Assembly: GCA_018608435.1 (NCBI GenBank)
Contig: JABAZV010000012.1
Location: 3,269 to 65,111, forward strand
DNA length: 61,843 nt
From: Patescibacteria group bacterium
Lineage (GTDB): Bacteria > Patescibacteriota > Minisyncoccia > Phycocordibacterales > UBA918
Direction: 5' to 3'
Below, piece by piece: positions 10,063-40,799 of the stretch. The notes below the pieces were generated by a model. That model searched no databases. It saw only the letters and a program-made list of their open reading frames with translations, and was not told the DNA's origin. Both the position numbers and the translations under genes were made by a program. The first letter of the stretch is position 1; each line of letters begins with the position of its first letter.

Positions 10063-11943
10063 ATGTCGTACAACAACGAAGAGTTTCCTGGCTATGTCAA
10101 AGTAGCCGGCCGCATCACAGTACTAACCGCCTTGGTTGGCGTGGCAGTGTTTGTGGTAGCGTTCATTTTTGACATCGGCAACCAAGAGTTGCAGCGTGTG
10201 TCTGCTCAATCCGCAACTACAACCTTGACTGTTCTAAACACACCACCAGTATTTACTGTCGGTGCGTATGAAGTTGTTGAATCATCAACCACTACGCCCA
10301 CTAACTCAGGTGATATTGTTCAATGGTCTGCTCTCGGAACAGACAGTAACGGTGCTCCGTATTTTTTGCTGATATGTGATGGCAATGCTACACCTACAGC
10401 TAATGCAGCCGCTGGGCCAGGTTCTCTTGGAACACAGCCTCCAGATTGTGATGCTGGAGTTGTGCAGTGGGGAGTTTCTACTAGTACGGTGAGTGGTCAA
10501 TTGGCTACAGTTTCAACTACTACAACTGAAGCTGCACCGTTTGCTGAGCAAAATAACTGGTACGCTTGGGTCTGTGATGACGACCCATTCAACCCTCGCT
10601 GTAACGACATTCCCGTACAGGGACTAAATGCAACTAACTCTTCACCATTTGCTGTAAACGGAAGACCAGTTTTGACTGACTTTGCAAATAACGGACCCGT
10701 TGATCCTGGCGCCACTTTGAATTTCCTTTCAACATCAACTGACCCTGACTTGTCTGGAGGTGAAGACAAGATTTACCTCGTAGTATGTCAAACTAATACT
10801 GACTACAGCACGACAACTAATACTTGTGCAGATAACTTCCTTGCATCAACCACAATTGATCTCTTGAGTGACGCATCTGCGACTTACACTCTGGCGGCAA
10901 TTGTTCGTGATGATACGTACAGTGCTTATGGATACATAGTTGACGAACACGGTCACGAAGCAACTGCTAACCCGATTAGCGCAAACTTTATTGTTAATAA
11001 CGTTACTCCAACAATATTAAGTGGAGACATCGTTCTAAATGGAGGAGGTAACTTAGTGCTTACTATTCCGGCTGGAGAGACACCAAGCAGCACGCTTGAT
11101 TTCACCATTAGAGACGGAAACAGTTGTCTCAACAGTGCATCCACGAGTGAAATTACTGGCTATGAAACTGCGGTCTTTAGAACTGGAGTGGGCACATCAA
11201 CTTGTGATACAACTGCAGGATCTTACGATCCAAACAATTGTTACGGTAGCCAGTTACCACCTGCAACATGGAATCTCTCTTGTAATGCAACTACAACCTG
11301 TGCCAGTCCTTTGCAGGACACTATGGAATACACCTGTACTTTTCCACTATGGTTCGTAGCTGACCCTACAGACGCTGGTCCGAACACTCCAGCCGCGCTT
11401 GAAACAGACACTTGGTCAGCAGCAGTTGCTGGAGCCGATGATGATTTCGCTACTAGTTCACTTGTGATTACGTCTAGTCCTGTAGAATTAGCAAGCTTCA
11501 GTGCAATCGATATTGTAGATGACGAGATTGCTTACGGGGCTGTTGAGCCAGGTGACGATACCGGTACGTTGTCCGCCACTTCAACCGCTCAAAATGTCGG
11601 TAACACAGGACTTGACCAAGAGGTACGAGGAGACTCCATGTGTGGTACTTACACAACAACTACGCCTTGTCCTGCTGCACCAACGTCAACAATCCCAGCT
11701 TCTGAACAAGAATTCGCTTCTACAACTCTAGCTTACGGAAGTGTATTAGCTACAACCTTGTCTTCTACAACTGATATCGAAGTTGAGTTAGATATTCCAA
11801 AGACTACAGCTACTAGTTCAGATCTGTGGCAAGAAGGAACGACATACTGGGGAATTGCAGTTCCGGTCGCGATTACGTTGGCTGGTAGTTATCAAGGGCT
11901 TAACACCTATACAGCGGTAACTGCTGAAGATGCCGACTGGTAG
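10063..11943 (+). CDS. membrane-anchored Thr/Ser/Cys-rich surface protein (626 aa)
   Basis: N-terminal signal anchor ITVLTALVGVAVFVVAFIF followed by T/S-rich beta-type sequence with many Cys. The C-terminal module ends LAGSYQGLNTYTAVTAEDADW. Confidence 0.85.
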   Translation: MSYNNEEFPGYVKVAGRITVLTALVGVAVFVVAFIFDIGNQELQRVSAQSATTTLTVLNTPPVFTVGAYEVVESSTTTPTNSGDIVQWSALGTDSNGAPYFLLICDGNATPTANAAAGPGSLGTQPPDCDAGVVQWGVSTSTVSGQLATVSTTTTEAAPFAEQNNWYAWVCDDDPFNPRCNDIPVQGLNATNSSPFAVNGRPVLTDFANNGPVDPGATLNFLSTSTDPDLSGGEDKIYLVVCQTNTDYSTTTNTCADNFLASTTIDLLSDASATYTLAAIVRDDTYSAYGYIVDEHGHEATANPISANFIVNNVTPTILSGDIVLNGGGNLVLTIPAGETPSSTLDFTIRDGNSCLNSASTSEITGYETAVFRTGVGTSTCDTTAGSYDPNNCYGSQLPPATWNLSCNATTTCASPLQDTMEYTCTFPLWFVADPTDAGPNTPAALETDTWSAAVAGADDDFATSSLVITSSPVELASFSAIDIVDDEIAYGAVEPGDDTGTLSATSTAQNVGNTGLDQEVRGDSMCGTYTTTTPCPAAPTSTIPASEQEFASTTLAYGSVLATTLSSTTDIEVELDIPKTTATSSDLWQEGTTYWGIAVPVAITLAGSYQGLNTYTAVTAEDADW

Positions 11944-12177: not shown

Positions 12178-13131
12178 ATGAGTTTCGCGGTACGCAAAAT
12201 TAGCGCATGTGTTCTTCTTTCAGCAGTGTTCTTTCTGGGCACTAATATTAGTGATGCTCTGGCTGGGTTCGGTATTACTCCGCCATACGTACGCAACACT
12301 AGCCTGGTTCGCAACTCAACTTATGAACAGCAGATTTTACTAGTGCGCAGTGACACAAATACAGCTCAGAAAGCCGAGATAACAATCGACGCTCCTGAGA
12401 TTGAGGAATGGGTAACTATTCTTGAAGGAGATGTAATCAGAATGCCTAACGGTGTGCAGAAGGTGCCAATGACGGTGCGTATAGTTGTTCCTGGTGATGC
12501 AGAGTTCCGTAATTATGAAGGTGCAATTAGAATTCGTACATTGCCAGACGATGACCAGGTTAAGCCAGGTGCTGTCAGTATTTCACTTGGAGCGTTAGTT
12601 GATATAGACCTGTCTGTTATCGATCGTGAGATTAAAGATTTTCGTGTTCGCAAAATTTCAGCGGCTGACTTGAATGAAGGTCATAAATTAATGTGGCTAT
12701 TCTTCCCTGGAAAAATTCGTTTCGATATGATGATTGAAAACACCGGTAATGTAGCCATTGCTCCATCCAATGTCTCTTTCCGTATCTTTGATCGCACTGG
12801 AAAAATTTTGCTGGAAGAAACAAACAGTATAGGAAAGACTGAAACTGTTCCTCCTTACGGCACAGAAACAATAACAGCCAATATTCCTACAAGGTTGCCG
12901 GCGGGTAGCTACGTCGCTCGCTATGCTATTTATAATGATGAAGAAGTTAAGCAAGAAGGTGACATTAGTCTTAATATTGTTCCGGCTGGAACGCTTCAGG
13001 CTGCAAATTTTGGTTTTATCGGCTTGTCGATGGCGCATAAGATATCTGTTTTGCTGCCGGTGTTTGCTGTTATCATTGCTGGAATATTTGTCTGGCAGTC
13101 ACGTCGGCGTGATAAGGTTCGTAAAGTATAG
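12178..13131 (+). CDS. DUF916/DUF3324-like cell-surface protein with C-terminal TM anchor
   Basis: Signal peptide ending ALA|GFGITPP, two beta-sandwich-like halves, and a C-terminal TM ISVLLPVFAVIIAGIFVW followed by RRRDKVRK. Confidence 0.8.
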   Translation: MSFAVRKISACVLLSAVFFLGTNISDALAGFGITPPYVRNTSLVRNSTYEQQILLVRSDTNTAQKAEITIDAPEIEEWVTILEGDVIRMPNGVQKVPMTVRIVVPGDAEFRNYEGAIRIRTLPDDDQVKPGAVSISLGALVDIDLSVIDREIKDFRVRKISAADLNEGHKLMWLFFPGKIRFDMMIENTGNVAIAPSNVSFRIFDRTGKILLEETNSIGKTETVPPYGTETITANIPTRLPAGSYVARYAIYNDEEVKQEGDISLNIVPAGTLQAANFGFIGLSMAHKISVLLPVFAVIIAGIFVWQSRRRDKVRKV

Positions 13132-13133
13132 AG

Positions 13134-14249
13134 ATGCGAGTATTAATACGATTCATACAATACAGTTTTGTTGCACTGATCTTATTTCCTTTCTTTGTCT
13201 CTGCTCAAACGCTAAGTTATGCGACCACTACACTCATTATTAGTATTTGTGGTAACGAAATTGTAGACAACGGTGAGGATTGTGATGTGCTTGGAGAAAC
13301 TGGTGTTTACAGCCAAACTATTGCTGGTCGTCAGTGTACGCCAAGCTGTTTTTTTGGACCTTATTGTGGTGATGGTATTTTACAAACATCCTTTGGTGAA
13401 GAGTGCGATGATGGCAACAATGATGACGCTGACTTCTGTTCTTCAATATGTGAAATTGAACCAGCCGGTTCAGGTGGAGGTGGTTCTTCAGGTGGAGGTG
13501 GTTCTTCAGGTGGAGGATCAACCCAAGAACTTGGAGACACTGTTATTTCAATTATCGGTAGAGCATATCCATCTAGAACTATAAATTTTTTACTTGATAC
13601 AGAGTCTGTTGGCTCGGCTCGTTCTGACAGTCAGGGTCGGTTTGATTTTTCTACTGAAGCTTCACCTGGCACAGCGACAATTGGTATTTGGTCAACTGAT
13701 TCCAGCGGGGTTCGCTCGATCACCCTTAACAACACGTTTGATGTTACTCAAGGTGCAGTTACAAGTATTAACGGAATAATTTTACCTCCCACAATTTCTC
13801 TGGCTGACACAACGGTAGATCCTGGTCAATTAGTGACCGTGTCGGGAATATCAGTCCCAGAGACACTGGTAGAGATTCATGTTGATGATAGCGAGTTGGT
13901 TGAGACCACACAGTCGGACTTTGAAGGGCGCTGGAGCTTTGATTTTGATACAAGTAAGGTAAGCATAGCTGAGCACACCCTCAGGGCGCGTTCTGTCATC
14001 GGAGAGCCACCTCTTACTACAGACAGTAGCTTCAGTAATTCTTTGCAGCTATTTGTTGGTGTTGAAGGCAGGGCTACACAGCCGTCTGATCTTAACAGAG
14101 ACGGATTCATTAACTTGATCGACTTTTCTATTTTAATTTTCTGGTGGCAAACAGATGGGGGAGACTCAGATCCGCCAGCTGACATTAATCAAAATGGGCG
14201 AGTCAGTCTAGAAGATTTTTCTATCTTATTGTTTAACTGGACAGGTTAG
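13134..14249 (+). CDS. secreted protein with Cys-rich repeats, Gly/Ser linker, Ig-like domains and C-terminal dockerin-like repeats
   Basis: It starts 2 nt after the previous stop. Two CG(N/D)..(E/D)..GE(D/E)CD motifs match the Myxococcus-type cysteine-rich repeat. A GGGGSS linker follows. The C-terminus has DLNRDGFINLIDFSILIFWW and DINQNGRVSLEDFSILLFNW, an EF-hand-like dockerin pair. Confidence 0.9.
   Translation: MRVLIRFIQYSFVALILFPFFVSAQTLSYATTTLIISICGNEIVDNGEDCDVLGETGVYSQTIAGRQCTPSCFFGPYCGDGILQTSFGEECDDGNNDDADFCSSICEIEPAGSGGGGSSGGGGSSGGGSTQELGDTVISIIGRAYPSRTINFLLDTESVGSARSDSQGRFDFSTEASPGTATIGIWSTDSSGVRSITLNNTFDVTQGAVTSINGIILPPTISLADTTVDPGQLVTVSGISVPETLVEIHVDDSELVETTQSDFEGRWSFDFDTSKVSIAEHTLRARSVIGEPPLTTDSSFSNSLQLFVGVEGRATQPSDLNRDGFINLIDFSILIFWWQTDGGDSDPPADINQNGRVSLEDFSILLFNWTG
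13473..13517 (+). repeat. perfect 18-nt tandem repeat x2.5 (GGTGGAGGTGGTTCTTCA) encoding the GGGGSS linker
   Basis: Units at 13473-13490 and 13491-13508 are identical, followed by a partial unit at 13509-13517. Confidence 0.9.
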
Positions 14250-14284
14250 ATATAAAGAAAGACTGTGGTAATTTATTTTCATTT

Positions 14285-14313
14285 AAAAAACGCTCCTTCA
14301 GAGCGTTTTTTTT
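14285..14313 (+). terminator. rho-independent terminator
   Basis: Stem AAAAAACGCTC/GAGCGTTTTTT with loop CTTCA, then a T tract. Confidence 0.8.
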
Positions 14314-14774
14314 GTGATTTACAGCATAGTTTGCGTCTCATCATGTTAAAAGTCAGAGATTATTTTGGTGCAAAATATTTACAAATATTTAGTCTGCAAA
14401 AAATTGTTGAACAAAATAATATTTACTAGCATTGACACATCTTAAAATCAAACGCTTAAGTTGCACGTAAAAGGTGTTTTTTGTGTATAAGTCAAAGATG
14501 CATCTTTCATACATCGTACAATGTAATAGTATTTGTAAAGGAGGTAATCATTTAGTATTACTGCCTAGCTCCACTTTTGCGAAGTGTAGCTGACAGTCGA
14601 TATTTTATCGAACGCAAAGGTGGGGCTGGGAACACTTCAGCCAGTGTTACTTTGCAAATATACTTACAGTGCTTTTTGTGAATTGGAGTGGAGACCAATT
14701 CACGTACGAGTTTGTACCTCGTCTACACTCACACCACGGGCTGTAGACTGTAAGTCTAAACAACGTAGAGTAAT

Positions 14775-15929
14775 ATGCAAAGAACTGCCAACAAGTTCTC
14801 TGTGCTTCAGGCTATTGCAGCGATTGCAGGCTTTGCCATTTTATTATGGTCAGTCGGTCTGCCTTCACTCCGTTTTGCGGAAGCTGCAAGTGTCACCTCA
14901 TTCAGCGATACCCTTTCGACTTCTGAGCCAAGTGTAGTGTCAAACCATACTATTCAGTTCACCACCAATGCTGGTGTTGCGGCTGGACAGTCAATTGTCA
15001 TTTCATTTGAATCAGGGTTTACAGGTGTAGCTGGAATCGCATTCGGCGACGTCGACTTGTCGGTCGACACAGGTTCAGTTGTCGAGGAAGACCTCGCTGC
15101 TGCTGCCTCCGGAGCGGATTGGGGTGTAAGTTCCGCTGGTCAAGATGTCACTATCACAAGTGGTACTGACACCATTGGAGCTAATGCTACAGTCACAATT
15201 GAGATCGGAACAAACGCCACTACCGGAGTAACTGGTACAAACCAGATTACCAACCCGGCAGCTGGATCTTACGAAGTAACGCTAACGTCAGGAGCGACTG
15301 ACACCGGTTCAACCCGAGTTGCAACCATCGAGACTGTTCTCGTAACAGCCTCTGTTGACACACTCTTTACATTTACTGTAGGAGGTGTAATAGGTGGACA
15401 AACAGTAAACGGTACTACAACCACCGGTTCAACTACACCCACAACAATCCCGTTTGGTGTACTGGACGCAGGAGTTGCTAGTACAGCTGCTCAAGACCTT
15501 ACGGTTGTAACAAACGCCAGAAATGGCTTTGTGGTAACAGTAACGGCCGACGGACAGCTTGATTCTTCCACCGGAGCTGACATCGATGGCTTCCGTAACG
15601 GAAACTTCGATTCAACAGCCGTACCGTGGGAGAGTCCATCAGCTAGTGTCGCCGATGAAAATACTTGGGGACACTGGGGTATTACCTCAGACGACCCGAC
15701 GATTACTGCCGGACTAACAGACGAGTTCGACACAGCTGGAGACGGTCAGGATTATGTATCCGCATCGACCACTCCAGTAGAAGTATTTCGTCATGATGGT
15801 CCGATCGATGGAACGCTAACCGGCCAGGGTACTGCCCGAATCGGTTACACCGTAGAAATTAGCGCCTTGCAAGAGGCTGGTAATGACTACGATGCCATTC
15901 TGACTTATGTAGCAACGCCAGTATTCTAG
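14775..15929 (+). CDS. secreted Thr/Gly-rich surface subunit candidate (384 aa)
   Basis: Signal peptide with AEA|AS. The sequence is entirely beta-type and T/G/A/V-rich. The C-terminal module is ...LFTFTVGG...IPFGVLDAG...LTVVTNARNGFVVTVTADG...GNDYDAILTYVATPVF. Confidence 0.85.
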   Translation: MQRTANKFSVLQAIAAIAGFAILLWSVGLPSLRFAEAASVTSFSDTLSTSEPSVVSNHTIQFTTNAGVAAGQSIVISFESGFTGVAGIAFGDVDLSVDTGSVVEEDLAAAASGADWGVSSAGQDVTITSGTDTIGANATVTIEIGTNATTGVTGTNQITNPAAGSYEVTLTSGATDTGSTRVATIETVLVTASVDTLFTFTVGGVIGGQTVNGTTTTGSTTPTTIPFGVLDAGVASTAAQDLTVVTNARNGFVVTVTADGQLDSSTGADIDGFRNGNFDSTAVPWESPSASVADENTWGHWGITSDDPTITAGLTDEFDTAGDGQDYVSASTTPVEVFRHDGPIDGTLTGQGTARIGYTVEISALQEAGNDYDAILTYVATPVF

Positions 15930-15980
15930 AGAACTTATGTTCTCAAATGATTATTGATTCCAAGCTTGGAGTTAACATAC

Positions 15981-16020
15981 AAAAAACCTATCTCCCACCA
16001 CGAGAGAGGTTTTTTGTTTT
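15981..16020 (+). terminator. rho-independent terminator
   Basis: Imperfect hairpin AACCTATCTC...GAGAGAGGTT flanked by A and T tracts. Confidence 0.6.
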
Positions 16021-16187
16021 TAAGGTGAATGTGTTTTGATAATAAGCTTTATCTGATTGAGTTTGTGATATTAACTAATTGTTTTATCGGTAGTTTTACT
16101 AATTATTAAATTAAACTTCGTCTAATTGCTGTCATCTGTGTACAGACAAAGTATTTAACTTGAAGTCACTGTTATAATTCACCTGTA

Positions 16188-17294
16188 ATGAATAAGCGAT
16201 TATTGGCGCCAGGGTTTATTTTGGTAATATTTTTAGCGGTACTTTCTCCCGATTCAGCGGAAGCAGCTTCGTTGTATATAGACCCTCCCTTTAGCGCTTT
16301 AAACAAAGGTGACGCAGGAGTTTTGGCTGTTAGACTCGATGTAGATGAGGATTCTGGCGAATGTGTAAATGCAGTTGATGCAGTTGTTTCATATTCAAAA
16401 GGAATTGAACCGACTGACATTTCGATTGGAGAGTCTATTTTAAGTATTTGGGTTGAAGAACCGCTTATTAACCGCGATGATAGAACTATCACTTTCGCTG
16501 GCGGGATTCCTAACGGCTACTGCGGACGCGTGGTAGGTGATCCGCAGCTAACTAATAAACTTGCAGAAATAATTGTCCGTTCACCGGGTTTTTCAATTGG
16601 TGCCAGTAGCGACACTTCAACCTCAACATTATCCTTTTCTAATAATTCCACTGTTTACTTAAATGATGGTTTTGGCACCAAGGCCTCGCTTAATACTTTT
16701 CCAGCAACGATAAGCTTGGGAGATAAGCCAGGTTCTGCAATGGAAGACCCGTGGCAAGAGATAGTCGATGCTGACACAACAGCACCGGAAGAGTTTAGTA
16801 TTTCCTTGCAGCGAGACGAAAAAGCTTTCAGTAAAAAATACTACATTGTTTTTAATACTTCAGATAAACAAACAGGAATCGATCGCTATGAAGTAATTGA
16901 AGAAAAAATAGATCTAATTGGTAGTTTTCAGTGGGGAAGGGCTGATGCTCCGTGGGTGAAAGCTAGAAGCCCTTACGTACTTGAAGATCAGACTTTGAAC
17001 AGCACAATCCGTGTTAAGGCAGTCGATAAGACAGGTAATGAGTACATTGCTACTTTGGTTCCGGACGAATCATTACGAACTGCTTCTGCTGAAAGTAGGG
17101 TTGCAATAGCAGCTATTGTGGCTGGAATCGGGCTGGTTTTGATGTTGGCAATTGTTGCAGTTGTATTTGCCTTTAGGCGGAAGCGACGTGGTCAGGCATC
17201 AGGGTTTGGTGGTAAAGAAGATGAGTCTGATGAAGTTTTTGACGAAGAAATAAGCGAAGAAGAAGTGACTGATAATTCCAAAATAGAAAAATAA
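16188..17294 (+). CDS. cohesin-like domain protein with C-terminal TM anchor and acidic tail
   Basis: Signal AEA|ASLYIDPP. The segment ...VLAVRLDVD..CVNAVDAVVSYSKGIEP..ISIGESILSIWVEEP...ITFAGGIPNGY fits the cohesin-type pattern seen in CPR proteins. The TM is IAAIVAGIGLVLMLAIVAVVFAF followed by RRKRR. Confidence 0.8.
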   Translation: MNKRLLAPGFILVIFLAVLSPDSAEAASLYIDPPFSALNKGDAGVLAVRLDVDEDSGECVNAVDAVVSYSKGIEPTDISIGESILSIWVEEPLINRDDRTITFAGGIPNGYCGRVVGDPQLTNKLAEIIVRSPGFSIGASSDTSTSTLSFSNNSTVYLNDGFGTKASLNTFPATISLGDKPGSAMEDPWQEIVDADTTAPEEFSISLQRDEKAFSKKYYIVFNTSDKQTGIDRYEVIEEKIDLIGSFQWGRADAPWVKARSPYVLEDQTLNSTIRVKAVDKTGNEYIATLVPDESLRTASAESRVAIAAIVAGIGLVLMLAIVAVVFAFRRKRRGQASGFGGKEDESDEVFDEEISEEEVTDNSKIEK

Positions 17295-17297
17295 ATC

Positions 17298-19112
17298 ATG
17301 ATAAATAAAGCAAGAAAAATATTACCATTGTCTTCGAATATTGTGATGAAGGTCTTTGTTTTGTTCACTTTGCTTTTCTCACTCCTTGCTTCTGCATCAG
17401 CAGCCGAGGCGGCTTCTCTTTCACTTTCGCCAAGTACAGGAGTTTATAGTGTTGGCAGTACATTCAGCAGTCAGGTGCGAGTAAACACAAACGGAAAGCC
17501 GGTCAATGCGGCAGATGGAGTACTTTCATTTAATCCAAACGAACTTTCAGTAGTGTCTGTTAATCGTGCCGGTTCTATATTCAACTTATGGGTTACTGAG
17601 CCGGAATTCTCCAATTCTGCTGGAACAATAAGTTTTAGTGGTGGTGTTCCATCTGGTTTTTCTGGAGCTTCTGGCAACGTGATGAGTGTTACTTTTAGAA
17701 CAAAAACTTCTGGAGCAACACGCGTTTCTTTCTCAAGTGGTTCGGTTCTCGCTAACGATGGTCGTGGAACTAACATTCTTTCCAATATGAGCGGTGGTTC
17801 TTACACTGTTTCAACGCCAACTACAGCACCAGCACCAGAAGTTATTGTTGAGTACGTTCCTCCGGCCAATACTCCATCTGCTCCAGTGATTACTTCAACC
17901 TCTCATGCAGATAAAAATGGTTGGTACAAAAATAACAATGCCGAGCTAGCATGGAGTTTTCCAAGCGGAATCACTTCTGTCCGCACACTCCTAAACGAAA
18001 GTCCAAACACAATTCCGACCAAGGTTTACGATAGTAATCTGCCACGCAATATTACTCTGGCTGATTTGCCTGAAGGTGAATCTTATTTCCATATTCAGTT
18101 CAAAAACTCCGATGGTTGGGGTAAAGTCGCTCATTACAGGCTCGGAGTTGATACGGCTAAGCCTAGTTCAATAGAAATAACTTCTCCCGAAGGAGAAAAT
18201 TTCGCCAACCCAAACCAAACTTTAGTCATTAATACCGCAGACGAAACGACTGCTGTCAGTCGCTTCATGGTGAAGCTTGATGCTGATGAGCCATATGAAG
18301 TGATAGACACAACAGGATCAAGCACAATTACTTTGCCACCACTTGAGCCAGGGTATCATTCTGTGATTATAGAAGCGTTCGACGAGGCAGGTAATAGTAT
18401 TGTTGGAACATACTCATTTACGATTGAATCTTTTGACCGTCCGATTTTTACAGAATATCCAAATGAAATTAGTAGTGAAGTAATTCCTGTTATCAAAGGA
18501 CAAACCAGGCCAAATTCTGTCGTCAATGTTGAGCTTACAAAAGTCGGAGGAGAGGCTTTAAAATATACAGTTGAAGCAGACGAGTCTGGTGTCTTTACTT
18601 TTATTCCAGAAGGTAGATTGACTGACGGTGTTTATGATTTGTCTGCAATGGCAACTGATTCATTTGGCGCAGTGAGCGAAAGGTCAGAGGTGGTGCGCAT
18701 AGCTGTGCAAGAGAGAGGTTATATTAGAATTGGATCATTTCTCATCAGTCTTCTTTCCGTAATTGTTCCTTTGGTGGCTTTGGTGGCTTTGCTTGGTCTA
18801 CTGCTTTGGTATGTACTTTTCCTCCGTCGTCGTTTTCGCAGCCGGCTGCGCATAGAATCATCCGAAGCGCTCAGTATTCTTAAGCAAGAGTTTTTTAATT
18901 TACACGATATACTTAATGTCCAAGAAACCACCCTGCGCAGTTCTCGTAAGTCAGGAAAACTGACAAAAGCAGAGGCAGAAGTAATGTCTGCCATTGATGC
19001 GGCGTTGACAGAATCACGTCAGAAAGTAGAAAAAGAAATTACCGATATTACAACTTTGGCAAAAGTCAGGCAAAAGAAAACAAGCAAATTAGACAAAAAA
19101 GTAACTAGATAA
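17298..19112 (+). CDS. cohesin-like domain protein with Ig-like domains, TM anchor and coiled cytoplasmic tail
   Basis: It starts 3 nt after the previous stop. The segment LSLSPSTGVYSVGSTFSSQVRVNTNGKPVNAADGVLSFNPNELSVVSVNRAGSIFNLWVTEPEFSNSAGTISFSGGVPSGF is cohesin-like. The TM is FLISLLSVIVPLVALVALLGLLLWYVLF. Confidence 0.85.
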   Translation: MINKARKILPLSSNIVMKVFVLFTLLFSLLASASAAEAASLSLSPSTGVYSVGSTFSSQVRVNTNGKPVNAADGVLSFNPNELSVVSVNRAGSIFNLWVTEPEFSNSAGTISFSGGVPSGFSGASGNVMSVTFRTKTSGATRVSFSSGSVLANDGRGTNILSNMSGGSYTVSTPTTAPAPEVIVEYVPPANTPSAPVITSTSHADKNGWYKNNNAELAWSFPSGITSVRTLLNESPNTIPTKVYDSNLPRNITLADLPEGESYFHIQFKNSDGWGKVAHYRLGVDTAKPSSIEITSPEGENFANPNQTLVINTADETTAVSRFMVKLDADEPYEVIDTTGSSTITLPPLEPGYHSVIIEAFDEAGNSIVGTYSFTIESFDRPIFTEYPNEISSEVIPVIKGQTRPNSVVNVELTKVGGEALKYTVEADESGVFTFIPEGRLTDGVYDLSAMATDSFGAVSERSEVVRIAVQERGYIRIGSFLISLLSVIVPLVALVALLGLLLWYVLFLRRRFRSRLRIESSEALSILKQEFFNLHDILNVQETTLRSSRKSGKLTKAEAEVMSAIDAALTESRQKVEKEITDITTLAKVRQKKTSKLDKKVTR

Positions 19113-19114
19113 AT

Positions 19115-19816
19115 ATGACAAATTCAGAAAAGCAAGATAGTAAGCAGAAAAAGAATAATTGGTCCAAATACATTTTTATTGGCGCGCTAATGTTTGTTTT
19201 TGTTTATGCTTTAACAGCAGGAATAGTTGATAGTCGCTTAAACGAATATAAGGAAACGCTCACTGGACAAATTGCTGAGCAAGAAACCTTATTAGCTGCC
19301 ATTGCAGAAACAATCGCGCGTGGTGGAGCAGATACAATTACAGAATCGATTATTCGTGATTGTACTCTTAGCGAAAGAGCAAGCTTTGATGATTTGCTTG
19401 GACGTTTAAACAGTAGTTTGTCTTACAGTCAGCTGGTTGAACTAGAGCGTTTGTTTGGTCGTTGCGCTTCTTTTTTCTCGGAAAGGAAGTCGGTGATGTC
19501 CGCTCGGTTTGCGCGTGAAATTGAAGTGTACGAAAACCACGTAATACAGCTTAGTGCAATTGATGGAAACGATCTATCAGAAAAGTATTCGGTTGATAGT
19601 TGGCATGCACTTGCTGCTGAAGAGCAAAAACAGAATGAGCTCTTTACAGAACTCGTACAACTACAAGAAGAAATAATAAAGACTCTGCTCGAAGGAAGTT
19701 CCATTGACTCGACCGAGATTGTAGACATTCTCACGCGCGTGAGTGAGGTTCAGGGGATTCTGGCAGTGTCTAGTCAGCAAGCGGCTGCCATTAGATCAGA
19801 GCTAGTCTCGCTATAG
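19115..19816 (+). CDS. membrane-anchored helical protein (233 aa)
   Basis: It starts 2 nt after the previous stop. One N-terminal TM (IFIGALMFVFVYALTAGIV) is followed by helical sequence. No family recognised. Confidence 0.75.
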   Translation: MTNSEKQDSKQKKNNWSKYIFIGALMFVFVYALTAGIVDSRLNEYKETLTGQIAEQETLLAAIAETIARGGADTITESIIRDCTLSERASFDDLLGRLNSSLSYSQLVELERLFGRCASFFSERKSVMSARFAREIEVYENHVIQLSAIDGNDLSEKYSVDSWHALAAEEQKQNELFTELVQLQEEIIKTLLEGSSIDSTEIVDILTRVSEVQGILAVSSQQAAAIRSELVSL

Positions 19817-19817
19817 A

Positions 19818-19852
19818 ACAAAGAACTACTGCAGCGCAGTAGTTCTTTGTTT
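19818..19852 (+). terminator. terminator hairpin
   Basis: 15-bp perfect stem ACAAAGAACTACTGC/GCAGTAGTTCTTTGT with loop AGC. The T tract is short. Confidence 0.7.
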
Positions 19853-20053
19853 AATCTGTGACCAGGTTTAAATAGTTATGATTACTGCAGTTACGCTTAT
19901 AAATTATTTAAAAGTTATTATGCAGAACTCTTTAACCTGCTAAGTGACATTATTTTTAAGTTAGTTCGGTTATGCAGACTGTGTCATAAACCTTGAGAAT
20001 GATATGTCATAATGTAGATAAGCTGTCGTTACAGACTGTCGTATTTTTACTAT

Positions 20054-20797
20054 ATGAAACGTTTAATGAATTGGATTTCAAATTCCATTTTGCCACCGAA
20101 AAAAAAGGGCGTTGTGCGTTTTATGTTTCCAGCCGCCGCTTCCATTGTTGCTCTTATGAGCGCTTCGGTTATTCTCAGTACAGAAGCTTCTTATGTGCGT
20201 CTAGAAGCGAGTAAGACAACCGTTGAGGCAGGTGGGAATTTTTCTGTACAGATTTATGCCTACGCACACGAGCCGGTCAATGCGATAGATGTGACAATAA
20301 ATTACGACTCTAACAAGGTTTCTGTAGAACAAATAGACCGCGGCCAATCAGTTATAACAATTTGGACAGAAGATCCGGTTATTACAGATAATAAAATTAT
20401 CTTCAGCGGTGGAACCTTCAGGCGAGGTTTCCTAAAAGAGCATTTAATCGCTTCGGTCGATTTCAAAGCAAAATCTACTGGGCCTAGTGAGTTTTCGGTT
20501 TCTGACTTACTTTTGCTTGCCGGTGATGGAACCGGTACTGAGGTGGCTGTTTCTGAGGTGATAGATTCAAAACTAAATTTATTCATTTATGATGAAAACT
20601 CAGATCCGGCGAAAATTAAAGTCGAAGCAACTTTAAATCTACTGACTGACCTTGACGGAGACGGAAAAATTACTTTACGGGACATAAGTGCTTTTATGGC
20701 TGCTTGGCACGATAAGAGTGCTTTCTATGATTTTAATAGTGATGGAAAAATGAGTTTCAGAGATTTCTCAATTATCTTGGCAAATTACTTCTTTTAG
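20054..20797 (+). CDS. cohesin-like plus dockerin-like protein (247 aa)
   Basis: N-terminal hydrophobic signal. The segment VEAGGNFSVQIYAYAHEPVNAIDVTINYDSNKVSVEQIDRGQSVITIWTEDP...IIFSGG is cohesin-like. The C-terminal DLDGDGKITLRDISAFMAAW and DFNSDGKMSFRDFSIILANY are dockerin-like. Confidence 0.85.
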   Translation: MKRLMNWISNSILPPKKKGVVRFMFPAAASIVALMSASVILSTEASYVRLEASKTTVEAGGNFSVQIYAYAHEPVNAIDVTINYDSNKVSVEQIDRGQSVITIWTEDPVITDNKIIFSGGTFRRGFLKEHLIASVDFKAKSTGPSEFSVSDLLLLAGDGTGTEVAVSEVIDSKLNLFIYDENSDPAKIKVEATLNLLTDLDGDGKITLRDISAFMAAWHDKSAFYDFNSDGKMSFRDFSIILANYFF

Positions 20798-20875: not shown

Positions 20876-21081
20876 GTAATATTACGAACAAAAAACGACA
20901 ATAAATTTAACTCAACAACAGTAAAGCTTTACCAGTTTAGCCACTTTGCATGTTGATAGGATGAAATTTAGGTGTGCGAGCTTGTTATTATGTTATTACG
21001 TTCTTTCTGCGGTAGTTTAGCCATACGACGACTCAGAAAGCATGTAACTGTACAACGTAGAGTGTAATTTCCTTCTTGGAA

Positions 21082-23196
21082 ATGTCACTCAATAAAAAAA
21101 TTGATAAAGAGTTAAGGAAGAAACGCCGTACGGTGTTGTATTCAATGGTGTATGCCAGCAAGCTGTCAATGATGGCGGTTTTCTTGTTGTTACTTTCTTT
21201 TATTGCTCAGCCTTTAAACCAAGCCCTTGCGAATGGTCTAGAAGAGGAGTCTGAAACTGAAGAAACTGTAATTGCAGATGAAGTTAAGATGGATGATTCT
21301 GATAGTGAAGAGAATCAGCCAGAAGAAGTTGAGAGTAATAATCAAAACGTGTCAGATGCAGAAAATGTAAAAGAAAATCAAACTGACTCACAAGACGTGG
21401 TGCAAGCAGAAGTAGTTGATATTAAGCCAGTTGATTTGACTGAGGAAGAAATGGAGACAAATCAAACTACCGCACAAGTCACTGAAACTGAGGCCGTGTC
21501 TGATAACGAAAATGTTAATACTGCAGCTGAAGATGGCGAGGTTGAGAACGAAATTACTTCAACTGAGTCGCCAGTTATTTTTGAGGAAAGTCTTGAAAAC
21601 TTGCTGATAAACTCAGAAACACTTGATGTTTTGTTTAACGGAGAAGCTGCCTCTGAAGCTGATCTTGAATCTAACCTTGAACCAGATTCAGATATTCAAG
21701 CTGTTTCTCCAGTCATGGACGATATTAGTTCTACTACTGCAGAGGTTGGTGGTGAAGATTTAAATAATGGAGAGGTTTTAATGTCTGCCAGTACTAGCGC
21801 ACCACTTGCGACGAGCACTTCCGCATCGGCAGGAGGAGGATCTTCTTCTAGTGACAACCAGTCAGATGATGCTCTTGCGTCGACTGAAGATGCAGGTGTA
21901 GATGATTCTGGAAATGAGCAACAATCATCTGGCGGCGGTTCGGGCGGAGGAGTGGCAGATCCGGTAAATTCAGACAGAGAAGAAGAATCTGCAGCAGAAG
22001 AAGTTGCTAGTTCTTCAGACTCATCGTCTTCTGATGCTAAAGAGGAAGGGTCTGAAGAAAATTCTACTACAACAGTAGAGCGTGTTGTTGAGTCGCGTTA
22101 TTTGGTTACTGATGATAATTATTATCAGTTTGACAGAAAAGCTTGTGTGGCAGTTGGTGACGGAACATATCACTGTAGTTTAGCGACGGAAAATTCAATT
22201 GATCAAAATTCTGTCGTCTATGCCGAAGCTGGTGAAGACGGAGATATGGAAATATTTTTGCGTACAGCACGTGGTGGTGTTGAGCAGATTTCTGACAATA
22301 CACATGAAGACACCTCGCCACATATTGATCCTGAATCTATGAATATAGTTTGGCAGCGTTTGATTGACGGTCGCTATCAAGTAATTTTGTACAATTTGGA
22401 TGAAAAAAAAGAAAAGCAACTAACGTTCTCTCGCACCAACAACATGGAACCAAAGGTATCAAAAGAAGGAATTGTGTGGCAGGCGTGGGACGGAAACGAC
22501 TGGGAGATTATGTATTTTGACGGCACTTACACCGATCAGCTTACAGACAACCAAGCTCAAGATGTTGCTCCAGTGATCGAAGATGGTTATGTCTTGTGGA
22601 GTATTCTCGGCAGCGAAAATCAAGAGGCACGTGTTTATTCTCTTGAGGACGGTGAAACACTTTCGATTAAAGGTCATGAAGGCGGATCAATTGCCAATCC
22701 TCGTTTTGTCTTGGTTTACGACACAAAGTATGAAAACGGAGACATAATTACCCAGCGCTTTGATCCCGAGACTGGCTTGTCGGCACCGATTGCAGCCAAG
22801 CCAGCACCAGAACCAATACACATTCCTCCAGTTGATCCGATTGGGGAGATTCGCGCTTTAATTCAGAATAAGTCTTCGCAAAAAGAAGACCATGTAGAGA
22901 ATGATGTAGAGAATGGTGACAGTCAGCTTGATTTGGTCTCTGTTCCGGCTGATGACGACGATGTTACTCTCGATCTTAAGTCAGCTAGTTCATCTGATTT
23001 AGAAGGAGTAGAGATTGCTCCAGTAGCAGAAGAAGAGCCATTCATCCTGACTGACTACGACTTGGTTTTGACTGAAACGTATGAAGAATTGGTTCAGTCG
23101 ACATCGTCAGAGCCGGTGGCAGATTCGGCTGAGATTGTTGTCGGCGCTGTTGCAGAAAGTGAAGGTGTAAAAGTGGAGCTTATGAAGGAAGAGTAA
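21082..23196 (+). CDS. signal-anchored acidic protein with C-terminal propeller-like repeats
   Basis: ORF 21076 (TTG), with ATG at 21082. TM MMAVFLLLLSFIAQPL, then ~300 aa of D/E/S-rich low complexity. Repeated (I/V)VWQ..(D/W)DG..(E/Q)I(F/M/L)(L/Y) blades follow, resembling TolB-type beta-propeller repeats. Confidence 0.8.
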   Translation: MSLNKKIDKELRKKRRTVLYSMVYASKLSMMAVFLLLLSFIAQPLNQALANGLEEESETEETVIADEVKMDDSDSEENQPEEVESNNQNVSDAENVKENQTDSQDVVQAEVVDIKPVDLTEEEMETNQTTAQVTETEAVSDNENVNTAAEDGEVENEITSTESPVIFEESLENLLINSETLDVLFNGEAASEADLESNLEPDSDIQAVSPVMDDISSTTAEVGGEDLNNGEVLMSASTSAPLATSTSASAGGGSSSSDNQSDDALASTEDAGVDDSGNEQQSSGGGSGGGVADPVNSDREEESAAEEVASSSDSSSSDAKEEGSEENSTTTVERVVESRYLVTDDNYYQFDRKACVAVGDGTYHCSLATENSIDQNSVVYAEAGEDGDMEIFLRTARGGVEQISDNTHEDTSPHIDPESMNIVWQRLIDGRYQVILYNLDEKKEKQLTFSRTNNMEPKVSKEGIVWQAWDGNDWEIMYFDGTYTDQLTDNQAQDVAPVIEDGYVLWSILGSENQEARVYSLEDGETLSIKGHEGGSIANPRFVLVYDTKYENGDIITQRFDPETGLSAPIAAKPAPEPIHIPPVDPIGEIRALIQNKSSQKEDHVENDVENGDSQLDLVSVPADDDDVTLDLKSASSSDLEGVEIAPVAEEEPFILTDYDLVLTETYEELVQSTSSEPVADSAEIVVGAVAESEGVKVELMKEE

Positions 23197-23275: not shown

Positions 23276-26200
23276 ATGTTTTCCAAAATTTTGTCACGTA
23301 AAGTAAAACCATCAAAGAACTTTAAGAAGCGATTGAAACATCGTTCTCGCTTCGCTGTGGCTGGTTTTTTGGTAGCTTTGCTATTTTTGGAAATGACGAG
23401 TAGCTTGCTTACAAACACCTTTATTCCTGGCTTTATTTCTGTAGCAGAAGCGGCTTACAGCAATATCGATGCCGATGGTGACGGTACTGTCTCTGCAGCG
23501 CAAACTACTTGTGGAGGAGGGGGGAACTTTGATTGTCTTAACGACGGCGTGGCTACTTCTAGTAACCCTGGAACAGGTAGTGATTTCTTGGCTTTTTCAG
23601 GCGGAAATCAAGATTTCTACACAATGACGACTTTGCCGGCTGTTGATGCTGTAAGCAGGGTTTCTGTTCCGGTATACCACTTGGAAACAAGTGCAAACAT
23701 GAGATTGTCAGTAGCTTTGTGGGATGCTACAGAAACAACTCAATATGGAACAACTATTCAGTTTGCCAATGCCGCTTCTTCACTGTGGGACACGGCAGTT
23801 TTTTCTGGTCTCTCGCTCACCCAAACACAGCTTGATGGTTTGAGAGTAGAGCTTAGTTGCGCGCGTGTCGGCGGCGGAAAGTCAAATGAATGTAATGCTT
23901 ACGCAATGTTCGCTGCAGCTACTTACACTGAAGTTATTGATGTGACAGTAGGAAGTGTTGGTACTCAGCAAGATCTGGCTATTCCAACGACAACCGCGCA
24001 CGTCGGAGGATCATTTTCAATAGTTGAGAATACAGCTAGTCGAAACGTTACCTCAATAACTATTGCCGAGCAGGGAACAGTCGATGGTCAAAATGATCTT
24101 GATAATATTAAGTTGTTTTATGATCTCGACACAAGCGATCCATACAACTGTGCAGGTGAGACATATTCTGGGGGGGAGACACAGTTTGGAAGTACCGACA
24201 CTGATGGCTTTTCGGGCGCGAACGGCACGTCTGTTTTTACCGGCTCGGTTAACATAACTACCACTCAAGCAATGTGTGTTTATCCGGTGCTGGATGTTCT
24301 TGGTACAGTAACCTTTGACGAAACAGTAGAGATTCAAATTACCAACCCTGCGACTGATGTGGTTGGTAGCGGGTCGCCGGTTATTTCACCTGGCTCTGCG
24401 GTGCTGCTTTCGAGCACAACTGTCCTGCGACAATCTTCGATTGTGCAAGAGAACTATCATTGGCGTAACGATGACGGTTCAGAAGCGGCTGCTACCTCGG
24501 CAACGGCTGGGTCTGAAAACACTGCCTACAATGGAATGCCAAAAAACTCTACCAAGCGCGTGCGTTTTGCAGTGTCAAATGAAGGTAATGCTGATTCCAC
24601 CGCCCTACAGTTGCGTTTGGAATATGCTACGGCTACCGCGGCCTGTTCTGCACTTGGTACTTGGGTTGATACGGGTGCTGCTGGCGGTGCGTTTTCTATG
24701 TCGGATTCAGCTTCTCTCACAAACGGCAATGACACTACCGACATTTCGGTTGGAATAGGTGGTGTAACCAATCCCAATACAACTTTCCTTACAACAAACG
24801 GCGGAGTGCGTGATACTTCTTCTCAAACTGGCAATATAACCGCTACGTCTACAGAGTTCGTGGAGGTTGAATATTCAATCATTGCGTCAACTGCTATTCC
24901 GGACGGAACGTCTTATTGTTTTCGAGTGACAGACGCTGGAACTGCGCTGGATGGCTACACTAATTATCCAGAAGCAAACTTTAGCGCTGACGTTGAGGTC
25001 GATAGCACTGGCACGCAAACAGCGCAAGTGACTATTCCTACAACCGGTCAATACGCCGGCGGTGTATTGCGCTTAACAGACACTTCTGCTGGTTCTGATA
25101 CTCTCACCAGCGTCACTATTACCGCTAGTGGATCGATTGATATCGCCGCCGATGTGGAAAATATCAAACTTCGTTACGATCTTGACATCAGCAATCCGTA
25201 CACTTGCGATGACACTTCATATGCCGATACTGATACTCAGTTTGGTACCACTGTTACTAATTTTGACGGCAGTAATAAAGCAACTTTTTCTGGTTCGGTA
25301 ACTAACTCGCAAACCCAAACAGTGTGTTTGTACGTTGAATACGATGTAGTTGACACAACAACTAACGGAGGTTTGTTAGATGTTTATATTGCCAGCCCGT
25401 CAAGCGAGATTGTTTTTACGTCATCGACCGTTTCGCCATCTTCTCCGGTAGAGATTTCTGGTATGACAACTTTCGCTGCACCGTTTTTAACTCAAGCAAA
25501 TTATCATTGGCGCAATAATGACGGCACAGAGACAGGAGCAACTTCGGCTACTGGTGGAACTGAAAATACCGTTCTGACTGAAATGGCTAAAAGTAGCACG
25601 TATCGATTACGTTTTGCGCTTGGTAACACTGGTTTGTCGAATGCGCCTGAAGCGCGCTATCAGATTCAGTGGGCACAAAAAATATCAAGCTGCGTGGCAA
25701 CGCCAGAAATTGACTGGGAGCCAATTGGCACAGCAGCTGATGAATGGCAAATGTCCCCGACAGGGAACCTTACTGAAGGTAATGATACGACTGACGTTTT
25801 GCTGGCAAACGGAGGGGTTAGTGATCCGGCTGGTACATTCTTGACCAACAACAACGGGGTTAACGACACAACGGATCTGACCGCTTCGTCTACTTTGTTG
25901 GCTGATAATTATCTTGACTTAGAATTTGCGATAAGTCCTACAACTGAAAGTGTGCAAGGCGCAACTTACTGTTTTAGGGTGGTAGCAAATGGTAATCCGC
26001 TTGATTCTTATACTAATTTTCCTGAAGCTGTAGTAAAGCTCGATACCGACTATAAAATTCAGCGCGGAGTAAGTACGATGACTGGCACCACGCTCACTAT
26101 TACCGCTGGAAGTGAATACGAAGTACCGTCTTCAACGCGTGCGTTTATTCGCATCACAAATACCCAACTTACTGGCGCAGGGCCAAATACAGGTAATACA

Positions 26201-28855: not shown

Positions 28856-29920
28856 ATGAAAACAATGCTTCCGACAAATTATTTACACTTAAAGCTCATA
28901 AAGCTTGTCTTGCTGCTTCTTCTCACTGCAACAGCTTGTCTTAGTTTTGCTCCTTTAGCAGCTGCCAGCGGAATTACAATTCGGCCGTTTTTGATTGACG
29001 AAACACTTGAGCCACGCGGAGTTGCCACCAACGAAATTTTCATCACTAGTGATCATCCCGCGCCGCGCAAAGCGACTGTGTACGCAACGGTTAACGAAAT
29101 CACGGTTGACGCGTCGGGGGAGATTAAAGAATTTATTTCTCCAGTGATGACTGATCGCACTAACACCGTGACAAGCTGGATCGAAGTTTCGCGCGGACGC
29201 ATTACCATTCCACCAGGGGAAACCGCCACTTTGCCAATCACAGTGCGTACTCATCCTTTTGCCGAGCCTGGCGAGTACCATGTATTTATTGGTTTAGTTG
29301 AAGCGCCAAATCGTCCAACGGCAGAAAACATAGCGATGGCAGGTAATGCGCGTGGAGTTGTTCTTAAGGTAACGATCGACGATCAGCGTAAAGATGGTCT
29401 CAAAATAAAGAACTTCTTGGTTGATCGTTTTGTGACGGGAGAAGATTCACGTTTGATCACAGTCAATATTGAGAATACTGGCGATCTGCCAGCTTCTCCA
29501 GAAGGGGAAGTTGTTTTCTATGATTCTCGCGGTTCAGAGCAAATGGCGGTGCCAGTGAGTGCGGCTGGCAAGTTGGTACAGCCTGGAGAAGAAATGACAC
29601 TCACAACCAACGTTCCCATTGAGGGTGATCTTGGTCGCTACAAAGCAAATCTTACTTTGCGTTATGGTGAACGACAGAGTGCTGCTTTATATGACACTAC
29701 TTTCTTTTACCTTGTGCCCACACAAACACTATTTGTAATATTCTTATTTACACTGCTGTTTGTTTTGACTTCTGTATTTTTGCTGCGCCGCGTCTTTACT
29801 GGGCAACGCGAAGGCGGTGATTTTGAAGAAGTGTCAATGTATGTCGACGAAGAGTCTGTCAGAGAACCACAAGATCATGACATCGACTTAAAAAAACCAG
29901 CAGAAAAGACTAAAGAATAA
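28856..29920 (+). CDS. DUF916/DUF3324-like cell-surface protein with C-terminal TM anchor
   Basis: Signal AAA|SGITIRPF, then ...TSWIEVSRGRITIPPGETATLPITVRTHPFAEPGEYHVFIGLVEAP. A second beta domain is followed by the TM LFVIFLFTLLFVLTSVFLL plus RR and an acidic tail. Confidence 0.8.
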   Translation: MKTMLPTNYLHLKLIKLVLLLLLTATACLSFAPLAAASGITIRPFLIDETLEPRGVATNEIFITSDHPAPRKATVYATVNEITVDASGEIKEFISPVMTDRTNTVTSWIEVSRGRITIPPGETATLPITVRTHPFAEPGEYHVFIGLVEAPNRPTAENIAMAGNARGVVLKVTIDDQRKDGLKIKNFLVDRFVTGEDSRLITVNIENTGDLPASPEGEVVFYDSRGSEQMAVPVSAAGKLVQPGEEMTLTTNVPIEGDLGRYKANLTLRYGERQSAALYDTTFFYLVPTQTLFVIFLFTLLFVLTSVFLLRRVFTGQREGGDFEEVSMYVDEESVREPQDHDIDLKKPAEKTKE

Positions 29921-40785: not shown

Positions 40786-40799
40786 ATATTGCATTATTT

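Follow-up and report, generated by a model that had tools for sequence, protein, structure and literature searches.

Cohesin and dockerin modules are built into a conserved, putative surface-fiber gene cluster of Paceibacteria-type bacteria

Candidate Phyla Radiation (CPR) bacteria, or Patescibacteria, make up a large part of the diversity of bacteria and live attached to host cells, and we know of essentially no account of how members of the biggest CPR class (Paceibacteria/Parcubacteria) attach. Cohesin and dockerin modules outside cellulosomes are reportedly widespread, according to the 2009 survey by Peer et al., and proteins of Archaeoglobus fulgidus are said to combine the two. Here, we analyzed a 61,843-nucleotide (nt) stretch of a Patescibacteria contig (JABAZV010000012.1), referred to as the window, whose positions are used for all coordinates below, and describe a cluster of 12 genes (A to L, all on the + strand) that holds three cohesin-like and two dockerin-like modules among pilin-, adhesin- and chaperone-like neighbors.

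Two described fiber systems serve for comparison. The Pam pili of Candidatus Mycosynbacter amalyticus consist of Sec-exported pilins with a C-terminal truncated immunoglobulin (Ig) domain, served by PapD-like chaperones that keep their C-terminal transmembrane (TM) helix and by an RbmA-like membrane anchor, and PamA and PamB are the 2nd and 9th most abundant proteins of M. amalyticus (bioRxiv 10.64898/2026.03.03.709456). Pam pili are reported mainly in Saccharimonadia and Microgenomatia, and the words cohesin and dockerin do not occur in the paper (Troman et al., 2026, bioRxiv 10.64898/2026.03.03.709456). The M. amalyticus pam operon (NZ_CP045921.1) encodes PamA-E, PamT and PamR. In the WxL clusters of Firmicutes, a WxL-interacting protein (WxLIP) is encoded together with two WxL proteins, one small and one large, the large one having binding domains at its N-terminus and the WxL domain at its C-terminus (Hassan et al., 2023, PMC10599100). 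A literature search that combined cohesin and dockerin with CPR lineage names, mostly at title and abstract level, returned no published description of the present cluster; in one paper that was checked, the sole mention concerned non-cellulosomal dockerins in a giant Omnitrophota open reading frame (ORF).

The 12 genes occupy positions 10063 to 31591 (about 21.5 kb), with the five cohesin and dockerin modules in the middle. By scanning one genome per species, at least 17 loci with a related cluster were obtained, and gene presence and order were read from a table of tblastn matches to the window genes. Genes A to L recur wherever the contig is long enough, and 15 of the 16 loci of this kind keep their order, while genes upstream of A showed no conservation across the related loci in the same tblastn comparison. 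Sixteen of the at least 17 loci are labelled Patescibacteria (Nomurabacteria, Kaiserbacteria, Paceibacteria/Parcubacteria and others) and one sits on a complete 0.99-Mb chromosome; the organism labels of metagenome-assembled genomes (MAGs) are unreliable for several loci ('uncultured Candidatus Saccharibacteria', one 'Acidimicrobiales'). Locus L009 lies in CP060229.1, a complete Paceibacteria genome. Every fully covered locus contains three cohesin ORFs and two dockerin ORFs, neither more nor fewer, and their relative positions do not change; this recurrence indicates that the arrangement is more than chance. The sole rearranged locus, on an 11.7-kb contig of Candidatus Kaiserbacteria (L017, SKGH01000075.1), has the order E-F-H-A-B-C, with G, D and I to L not found on that contig, which indicates that the cohesin and dockerin genes remain linked, together with A-B-C, despite the rearrangement. 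A further locus (L016, JBLIMJ010000001.1), an 87.6-kb contig in the MAG labelled Acidimicrobiales, contains A to H, with I to L not detected; the contig is probably misbinned.

All 12 products begin with a hydrophobic signal or anchor segment, and all of the genes are 'hypothetical' in public records. No glycoside hydrolase, esterase, lyase, carbohydrate esterase (CE), polysaccharide lyase (PL), carbohydrate-binding module (CBM) or S-layer homology (SLH) family was found in any protein of the cluster or the window, in agreement with an initial annotation that had reported a complete cohesin-dockerin set free of carbohydrate-active enzymes. The word complete, taken as a self-contained kit, did not stand, as the modules form the middle of the longer conserved cluster. 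Judged from gene order and predicted domains, the five modules belong to a conserved, putative envelope operon cluster of Paceibacteria-type CPR bacteria. We read the cluster as a putative Paceibacteria surface-fiber operon with a built-in, closed cohesin-dockerin set.

Cohesin modules were assigned to proteins E, F and H. At the Pfam gathering cut-offs (Cohesin, PF00963, 24.1 bits; Dockerin_1, PF00404, 22.9 bits; EF-hand_1, 25.4 bits), Cohesin was matched by F (27.8 bits, residues 49-162) and H (30.2 bits, residues 51-170), and F additionally matched Big_13 (52.4 bits). The remaining domain that the initial annotation had called cohesin-like, at the N-terminus of E, was recovered as a paralog of the other two by BLASTP (33% and 38% identity, E-values 7e-10 and 3e-8) and by hhalign (probability 95.3%, E-value 2.3e-8). 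The second domain of E is about 25% identical to residues 241-371 of F (BLASTP), and a hidden Markov model (HMM) built from the E, F and H domains detected no fourth cohesin copy in the window. Profile searches against PDB sequences gave nothing significant for E, and the one with F matched Ig-like repeats of biofilm-associated proteins and nothing else. Within F, conservation is highest in the cohesin (68%).

E and F have type-I membrane topology, with the cohesin N-terminal (distal) and the TM helix C-terminal, and with a stalk that is short in E and long in F. The hydrophobic segments lie at residues 300-332 of E and 474-511 of F and are followed by cytoplasmic tails of about 36 and 93 residues, as the initial annotation had proposed for the first two cohesin proteins. 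Within the tail of F (18831-19112), the motif ...KLTKAE...QKVEKEI.D.T is kept in all 19 orthologs; this conserved tail and the adjoining gene G hint at a cytoplasmic partner or a signaling role.

The fold of the H cohesin was predicted with AlphaFold2 from an alignment of 27 homologs and searched against the PDB with Foldseek. With a mean predicted local distance difference test score (pLDDT) of 68.9 for the whole model and block means of about 76-92 in the beta (cohesin) domain, the prediction shows a beta-sandwich (jelly-roll) fold like that of solved cohesins. All of the top 38 PDB matches were cohesin modules (E-values 7e-10 to 1.5e-6, TM-scores up to 0.80), led by Clostridium perfringens 2vo8 (GH33 cohesin, 0.80) and 2jh2 (0.74-0.77) and A. 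fulgidus 2xdh (0.76). The cohesin fold expected from the initial annotation was thus borne out for H, the protein on which it was modeled. The JGI name 'archaellum component FlaF (FlaF/FlaG flagellin family)' carried by two H homologs (P0027 and P0058) was unsupported; since the predicted fold is that of a cohesin, the public name looks wrong. H has 383 homologous clusters at E-value ≤0.001; the best 120 of the 383 are 51-63% identical, mostly over full length, and those named among them belong to Candidatus Kaiserbacteria and Nomurabacteria, the rest being unnamed or 'hypothetical'. Contigs that bear H homologs show a matching gene order.

Dockerins were found at the extreme C-termini of C and H, where the initial annotation had placed dockerin-like pairs (14088-14249 and 20648-20797). 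Both exceed the Dockerin_1 cut-off: 27.7 bits in C (residues 318-365, nt 14085-14228) and 25.0 bits in H (residues 198-241, nt 20645-20776), so that H, the protein starting at 20054, does carry both modules, with a linker of about 25 residues between them. A Ca-loop expression (D-x-[NDS]-x-[DNS]-G...D) run over the 414 six-frame ORFs of the window hit only 14088, 14181, 20648 and 20729, in addition to a TSP3 repeat at 42726. The loops read DLNRDGFINLID and DINQNGRVSLED in C and DLDGDGKITLRD and DFNSDGKMSFRD in H, with Asp or Asn at loop positions 1, 3, 5 and 12 in both dockerins, and these Ca-ligand positions are kept in 14 of 14 C orthologs and in 27 + 20 H homologs, which answers the doubt whether the Asp/Asn pattern would survive alignment. 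The dockerin is the best-conserved part of either protein, with a mean pairwise identity of 83% in C versus 54% for the central beta-rich region, and of 65% in H versus 52% for the H cohesin; the hydrophobic helix faces are constrained as well. Both dockerins are short (about 50-54 residues) and have very hydrophobic helices. In the H model, helices 208-220 and 235-246 each follow a Ca loop and no helix precedes the first loop, an order that indicates a dockerin-type F-hand and not a full EF-hand. Taken together, the cohesin and dockerin modules of the cluster are genuine as folds, although the sequence model does not pick up E.

The C dockerin consists of two halves that nearly repeat each other (DFSILIFWW and DFSILLFNW), a feature that accompanies dual-mode binding in known dockerins. 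Loop positions 10-11, which set specificity in type I dockerins, are L-I and L-E in C, and L-R and F-R in H. Because the two dockerins differ at these specificity positions, two distinct cohesin-dockerin pairs are to be expected and not promiscuous binding, and we predict that the C and H dockerins prefer two different cohesins. The remainder of C is Cys-rich and non-enzymatic, as first annotated: DUF4215 was matched above cut-off (32.3 bits) and TIGR02232 at an E-value of 8.9e-10, no enzyme domain was found with Pfam and NCBIfam, and the Ig-like matches (Big_6, CarboxypepD_reg and Big_7), which concern the Ig-like part of the earlier description, all stayed below threshold.

Compared with non-cellulosomal cohesin-dockerin systems, such as the C. 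perfringens toxin/glycosidase system and that of A. fulgidus, the present set shares the cohesin fold, a duplicated C-terminal Ca-loop/helix dockerin and a context free of cellulose degradation, and H unites both modules as proteins of A. fulgidus reportedly do. Whereas the modules join secreted enzymes in C. perfringens, the cluster here contains no enzyme, and its cohesins are carried by single-pass membrane proteins with cytoplasmic tails inside a pilus-like operon; as far as seen in the best 120 of 383 H clusters and in the at least 17 loci, the set is confined to Patescibacteria. The division into anchors (E and F), an adaptor (H) and a dockerin-bearing cargo (C), together with a distal cohesin on a C-terminal anchor, resembles cellulosome scaffoldins (Clostridium thermocellum SdbA/OlpB and Acetivibrio cellulolyticus ScaA/ScaB), and many scaffoldin cohesins are among the structural matches of H. 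It differs in having one cohesin per protein in place of arrays, a TM helix in place of SLH or sortase anchoring, no CBM, no dockerin-bearing enzymes and short dockerins. The anchored scaffold, adaptor and cargo proposed by the initial annotation fit this predicted architecture and its conservation.

The fiber itself is most plausibly represented by D and J. In an alignment of D, 11 of the 17 sequences, one of which (L020) is a J C-terminal fragment, matched NF058581 (CPR_Pam_pilin_C, cut-off 55 bits), the NCBIfam profile for the C-terminal domain of CPR Pam pilins, with a best E-value of 5.9e-10, and full-model matches (2-148) that end at the C-terminus were found in L016, L019 and L013. The D family comprises 2050 clusters at 50% identity; among its distant representatives, 35 of 50 matched the same model (best E-value 1.5e-10), and a profile search of D against PDB sequences, among which those of the Pam filament were not detected, gave nothing significant. 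Judged by the NF058581 matches, D is a distant relative of the Pam pilins, and the D family may already be among the PamA matches that the Pam study obtained with a language model. Its C-terminal domain recurs at the end of the giant protein J (residues 198-384 of D versus 1680-1849 of J, 30% identity, E-value 1.6e-9 by BLASTP), with a shared terminal motif, Y-[VI]-A-[TV]-P-[VT]-F. J is syntenic in 18 loci. Its N-terminal module differs between genomes and the C-terminal pilin-like domain is conserved; J is a candidate tip adhesin. Directly after the N-terminal anchor of J (residues 64-75, nt 23465-23500) lies a lone EF-hand/dockerin-like Ca loop, DADGDGTVSAAQ. A half-dockerin at this place was considered and dropped, the loop being single, present in only three related loci and part of the variable N-terminal module.

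Proteins B, K and L (L by its N-terminal half) are paralogs with two predicted beta domains and a membrane anchor: K and L are 26% identical over 306 residues (BLASTP, E-value 1.5e-14), and hhalign aligned B with K over 227 columns (probability 96.8%, E-value 2.5e-10). B, for which no Pfam match was obtained, shows the highest conservation among the cluster's proteins (mean column identity 73%), and L additionally matched LytR_C (38 bits). The AlphaFold2 model of K (pLDDT 87.6) has domains at residues 40-174 and 182-286 and a helix at 289-316; its top Foldseek matches were the E. faecium WxLIP structures 9i25_C and 9i1y (E-value 3e-11), free and bound to a long WxL protein, followed by Vibrio RbmA and then by the fimbrial chaperones CfaA and CsuC (3e-9 to 2e-7 for the chaperones). 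Two of 16 K orthologs matched Pfam WxLIP_PGBD (PF06030) weakly (E-value 0.0015). Overall, B, K and L look similar to WxLIP and to the Pam chaperones in their fold and architecture, but not convincingly so in their sequence.

With Pam pili the cluster has in common the CPR lineage, Sec-exported subunits, a family (D) that matches the Pam pilin C-terminal model, a D protein of 384 residues that is close in size to PamB (38.7 kDa), a linked large fiber/adhesin gene, proteins with two beta domains and a TM helix that may resemble PamC/PamD, and RbmA among the fold matches of K, as for PamR. It differs in that no ATP synthase genes adjoin it and in that three cohesin and two dockerin proteins as well as A, G and I are present, none of which is described for pam. 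The gene logic is that of WxL clusters, with a small protein (D) and a large one (J) that share a C-terminal domain and with DUF916-DUF3324-TM-like B, K and L, and the best structural matches of K are the free and the complexed WxLIP. However, no Pfam WxL match was obtained for D or J, which end in the motif given above and not in a dual W-x-L, and WxL clusters are not reported to hold cohesin or dockerin.

From these data we favor, with a probability of roughly 55%, the reading that membrane-anchored cohesin stalks capture dockerin proteins beside or at the base of a D/J fiber, the whole serving as a host-attachment apparatus. Its starting points, namely domain identities, topology, paralogy, conservation and linkage, are observed, and cohesin-dockerin pairing is what we infer from them. 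Once exported by Sec, C and H would insert their Ca2+-loaded dockerins into cohesins on E, F and/or H, and C would thereby be retained at the cell surface, be it by direct docking or with H as an intervening one-step adaptor. The complex would sit beside or at the base of a donor-strand-type fiber made of D subunits with J at the tip, whose subunits would be handled by B, K and L; no catalysis would be involved, and the role would be one of adhesion and architecture. Several observations weigh against this reading. E gave no Pfam cohesin match, and only 3 of 20 E orthologs matched weakly (best E-value 0.0022), so that of the domains first proposed two cohesins and two dockerins pass Pfam and E does not. 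The C-terminus of H scored 24.8 bits with EF-hand_1, just under the cut-off, its dockerin part was modeled at moderate confidence (pLDDT 62-72), and in a profile search against PDB sequences it was closer to EF-hand Ca-binding proteins (E-value 2e-5) than to a cellulosomal dockerin (2y3n_B, E-value 0.1). D of the window reached only 16 bits with NF058581 (E-value 0.0096), which excludes it from membership by the NCBI rule, and its orthologs, with 18.8-26.3 bits, are all below the cut-off as well, so that single sequences of the D family attain at most about 26 bits versus 55, a further difference from Pam pilins. The TM-scores of the K matches are low (0.29/0.40) because the inter-domain angles differ. 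Lastly, neither the loop expression nor the cohesin HMM found a dockerin or cohesin on the fiber proteins A, D and J; the physical link between the cohesin-dockerin complex and the fiber is therefore a conjecture drawn from gene linkage alone.

The shortfalls of E and of the H C-terminus are also what speaks for a different account, in which the modules are real folds that do not pair: the cohesin-like domains would be spacers or binders of another ligand (host surface, peptidoglycan or glycan), the dockerin-like ones Ca2+-dependent stabilizing or ligand-binding EF-hand pairs, and the two would co-occur merely as surface proteins of one cluster. The many non-cellulosomal cohesin- and dockerin-like modules for which the 2009 survey reportedly gives no known partner count in its favor too. 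We consider this possible and doubt it, since the 3:2 module set is linked in every locus, the rearranged one included, the dockerins are more constrained than the rest of C and H down to their hydrophobic helix faces, H unites both modules in an arrangement known from adaptor scaffoldins, and both dockerins are located at the extreme C-terminus as in known dockerin-bearing proteins. The initial annotation had suggested a self-assembling surface structure, with H as a possible adaptor or head-to-tail polymer. In its polymer form, H would assemble head-to-tail, the dockerin of one copy entering the cohesin of the next, into a filament or lattice seeded on E or F and capped by C, for which its one cohesin and one dockerin separated by a linker, the strong full-length conservation of the H family and the A. 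fulgidus cohesin 2xdh among its structural matches can be cited, proteins of A. fulgidus with both modules being said to self-associate. Nevertheless, a dedicated fiber subunit, D, is already encoded, with a long conserved structured leader and flanking terminators, and the N-terminal hydrophobic segment of H may keep it in the membrane, which leaves this a distinctly improbable account. The obvious polymer-forming parts of the cluster are D and J, not the cohesin and dockerin proteins. A Pam-pilin-like D, a giant J with the same C-terminal domain and three WxLIP/chaperone-like proteins make it more likely that the surface structure is a donor-strand-type fiber with the cohesin and dockerin proteins as an accessory or anchoring layer, and a head-to-tail H polymer is the less likely structure of the two.

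A minimal cellulosome-like display, whose dockerin-bearing enzymes would be encoded elsewhere in the genome, has in its favor that only 62 kb of the genome is visible. We regard it as highly improbable: neither of the two linked dockerin proteins is an enzyme, be it in the window or in any orthologous locus, and the neighbors are of pilin, adhesin and chaperone type. The cellulosome reading proper was rejected on the lack of any carbohydrate-active enzyme, CBM or SLH domain in the window, with anchoring provided by TM helices. Cohesin-dockerin docking could also be integral to pilus biogenesis in Paceibacteria, with a base of E, F, H and C that nucleates, terminates or anchors the Pam/WxL-like fiber and so stands in for an usher, for a sortase or for the RbmA-like PamR, and with the F tail (together with G) coupling this base to the cell interior. 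We put this forward as a speculation that is unlikely to hold; if true, it would be the first use of the cellulosome plug-and-socket pair in a pilus machine and would tie together Pam pili, WxL clusters and cohesin-dockerin systems, so far separate. For the capture of dockerin proteins by anchored cohesin stalks, which we prefer, the significance lies in a concrete, conserved 12-gene candidate for the host-attachment apparatus of Paceibacteria, which extends the Pam pilus idea to another class and links it to the Gram-positive WxL/WxLIP system. The set is small and closed, three cohesins and two dockerins giving six possible pairs, and if these bind, they would offer new orthogonal and compact connectors (dockerin of about 50 residues) for protein engineering.

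Table 1. Genes A to L and predicted regulatory features of the cluster (window positions; promoter and terminator calls are consensus matches only; aa, amino acids)
Feature	Position	Strand	Description
Gene A	10063..11943	+	626 aa; N-terminal membrane anchor (aa 12-41), acidic, Thr/Ser-rich, 14 Cys; first conserved gene
Promoter-like site	12022-12051	+	upstream of B; 11/12 matches
Gene B	12178..13131	+	317 aa; signal peptide, two beta domains, C-terminal TM helix (aa 280-309); WxLIP/chaperone-like
Gene C	13134..14249	+	371 aa; signal peptide followed by two Cys-rich repeats (DUF4215), a Gly/Ser linker, a beta-rich region and a C-terminal dockerin (nt 14085-14249)
Terminator-like hairpin	14285..14311	+	11-bp stem then T run, 36 nt past the C stop; closes the B-C unit
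D 5' leader	14517..14774	+	-10-like TACAAT, 5'-proximal AAGGAGG, invariant GGAGTGGAGACC, ACAACGTAGAG just before the ATG
Gene D	14775..15929	+	384 aa; N-terminal beta domain preceded by a signal sequence; C-terminal domain a distant relative of that of CPR Pam pilins; last residues ...LTYVATPVF
Terminator-like hairpin and T run	~15981-16015	+	after D; D apparently monocistronic
Gene E	16188..17294	+	368 aa; signal peptide, cohesin-like domain (divergent, ~nt 16266-16682), a single Ig-like domain, TM helix, acidic cytoplasmic tail of ~36 aa
Gene F	17298..19112	+	604 aa; signal peptide, cohesin (nt 17442-17783) on an Ig-like stalk (Big_13), then TM helix and conserved cytoplasmic tail of ~93 aa
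Gene G	19115..19816	+	233 aa; small membrane protein, N-terminal TM helix (aa 17-40); syntenic in 19 loci
Gene H	20054..20797	+	247 aa; N-terminal hydrophobic segment, cohesin (nt 20204-20563), C-terminal dockerin (nt 20645-20797)
Gene I	21076..23196	+	706 aa; N-terminal TM helix, long acidic low-complexity region, weak TolB-like beta-propeller repeats
Gene J	23276..28825	+	1849 aa; giant surface protein, N-terminal anchor/signal, repeated middle, C-terminal domain (nt 28313-28825); ends ...IQYIAVPTF
Gene K	28856..29920	+	354 aa; signal peptide, two beta-sandwich domains, C-terminal TM helix; WxLIP/fimbrial-chaperone-like
Gene L	29927..31591	+	554 aa; N-terminal ~306 aa align to K, more hydrophobic segments, C-terminal LytR_C; last conserved gene

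Gene spacing, with intergenic gaps of 2 nt (B/C), 3 nt (E/F), 2 nt (F/G) and 6 nt (K/L), and the hairpins suggest that the cluster would be transcribed as the units A, B-C, D, E-F-G, H and I-J-K-L (Table 1). B and C would be translationally coupled. Upstream of D lies a 525-bp spacer; in a DNA alignment of 11 loci, its last ~230 nt show nucleotide-level conservation in the ten loci besides the window (L001:4892-5106, L003:4737-4951 and eight more), although the proteins of those genomes are only about 60% identical. For the fold of this leader, RNAalifold predicted 54 pairs, 33 of them with compensatory double changes. No Rfam family was found for the leader, and a scan of the whole window with Rfam returned two tRNAs only. 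The leader looks like an undescribed structured 5' untranslated region, and it may be a STAB-SD-like stabilizer of the mRNA of a very highly expressed gene. The leader and the flanking predicted terminators would fit D as a very highly expressed structural gene.

Among the remaining products, A matched a TadE/G-like family weakly (Pfam Tad, E-value 0.0011, below cut-off) and is syntenic in 13 loci. Its end, ...LNTYTAVTAEDADW, resembles that of D, and A was considered as a third pilin-like protein; hhalign gave a probability of 0.3%, that is, no relation. A fusion of F and G in six loci was likewise ruled out, since direct translation showed a stop after F in every locus. The TolB/beta-propeller matches of I have E-values of 6e-5 to 2e-3, below the NCBIfam cut-offs, and the protein has a net charge of -119.

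Outside the cluster, 36 of the 37 window ORFs of at least 150 residues are on the + strand, and the one exception on the - strand (3797-4315) overlaps an oxidoreductase gene that runs on the + strand. Of the 30 2-kb bins, 28 have a positive GC skew, with slightly negative values at 10-12 kb and 50-52 kb. Together, the strand bias and the skew indicate an extreme gene-strand bias along one replichore. The ORF at 6101-8935 encodes a strongly acidic protein of 944 residues that has no Pfam match at E-value ≤0.01 and is not conserved beside the cluster in other genomes, and that at 47724-51908 (1394 residues, outside the conserved cluster) has only a faint Ig_7 match. At 40800-43367, a surface protein with bacterial TSP3 Ca-binding repeats and Big_13 is flanked by a response regulator (39976-40785) and by a histidine kinase (43364-44719) that overlaps its stop; judged from this gene order, the region 39976-44719 seems to be a two-component system that encloses the gene of a secreted or surface protein.

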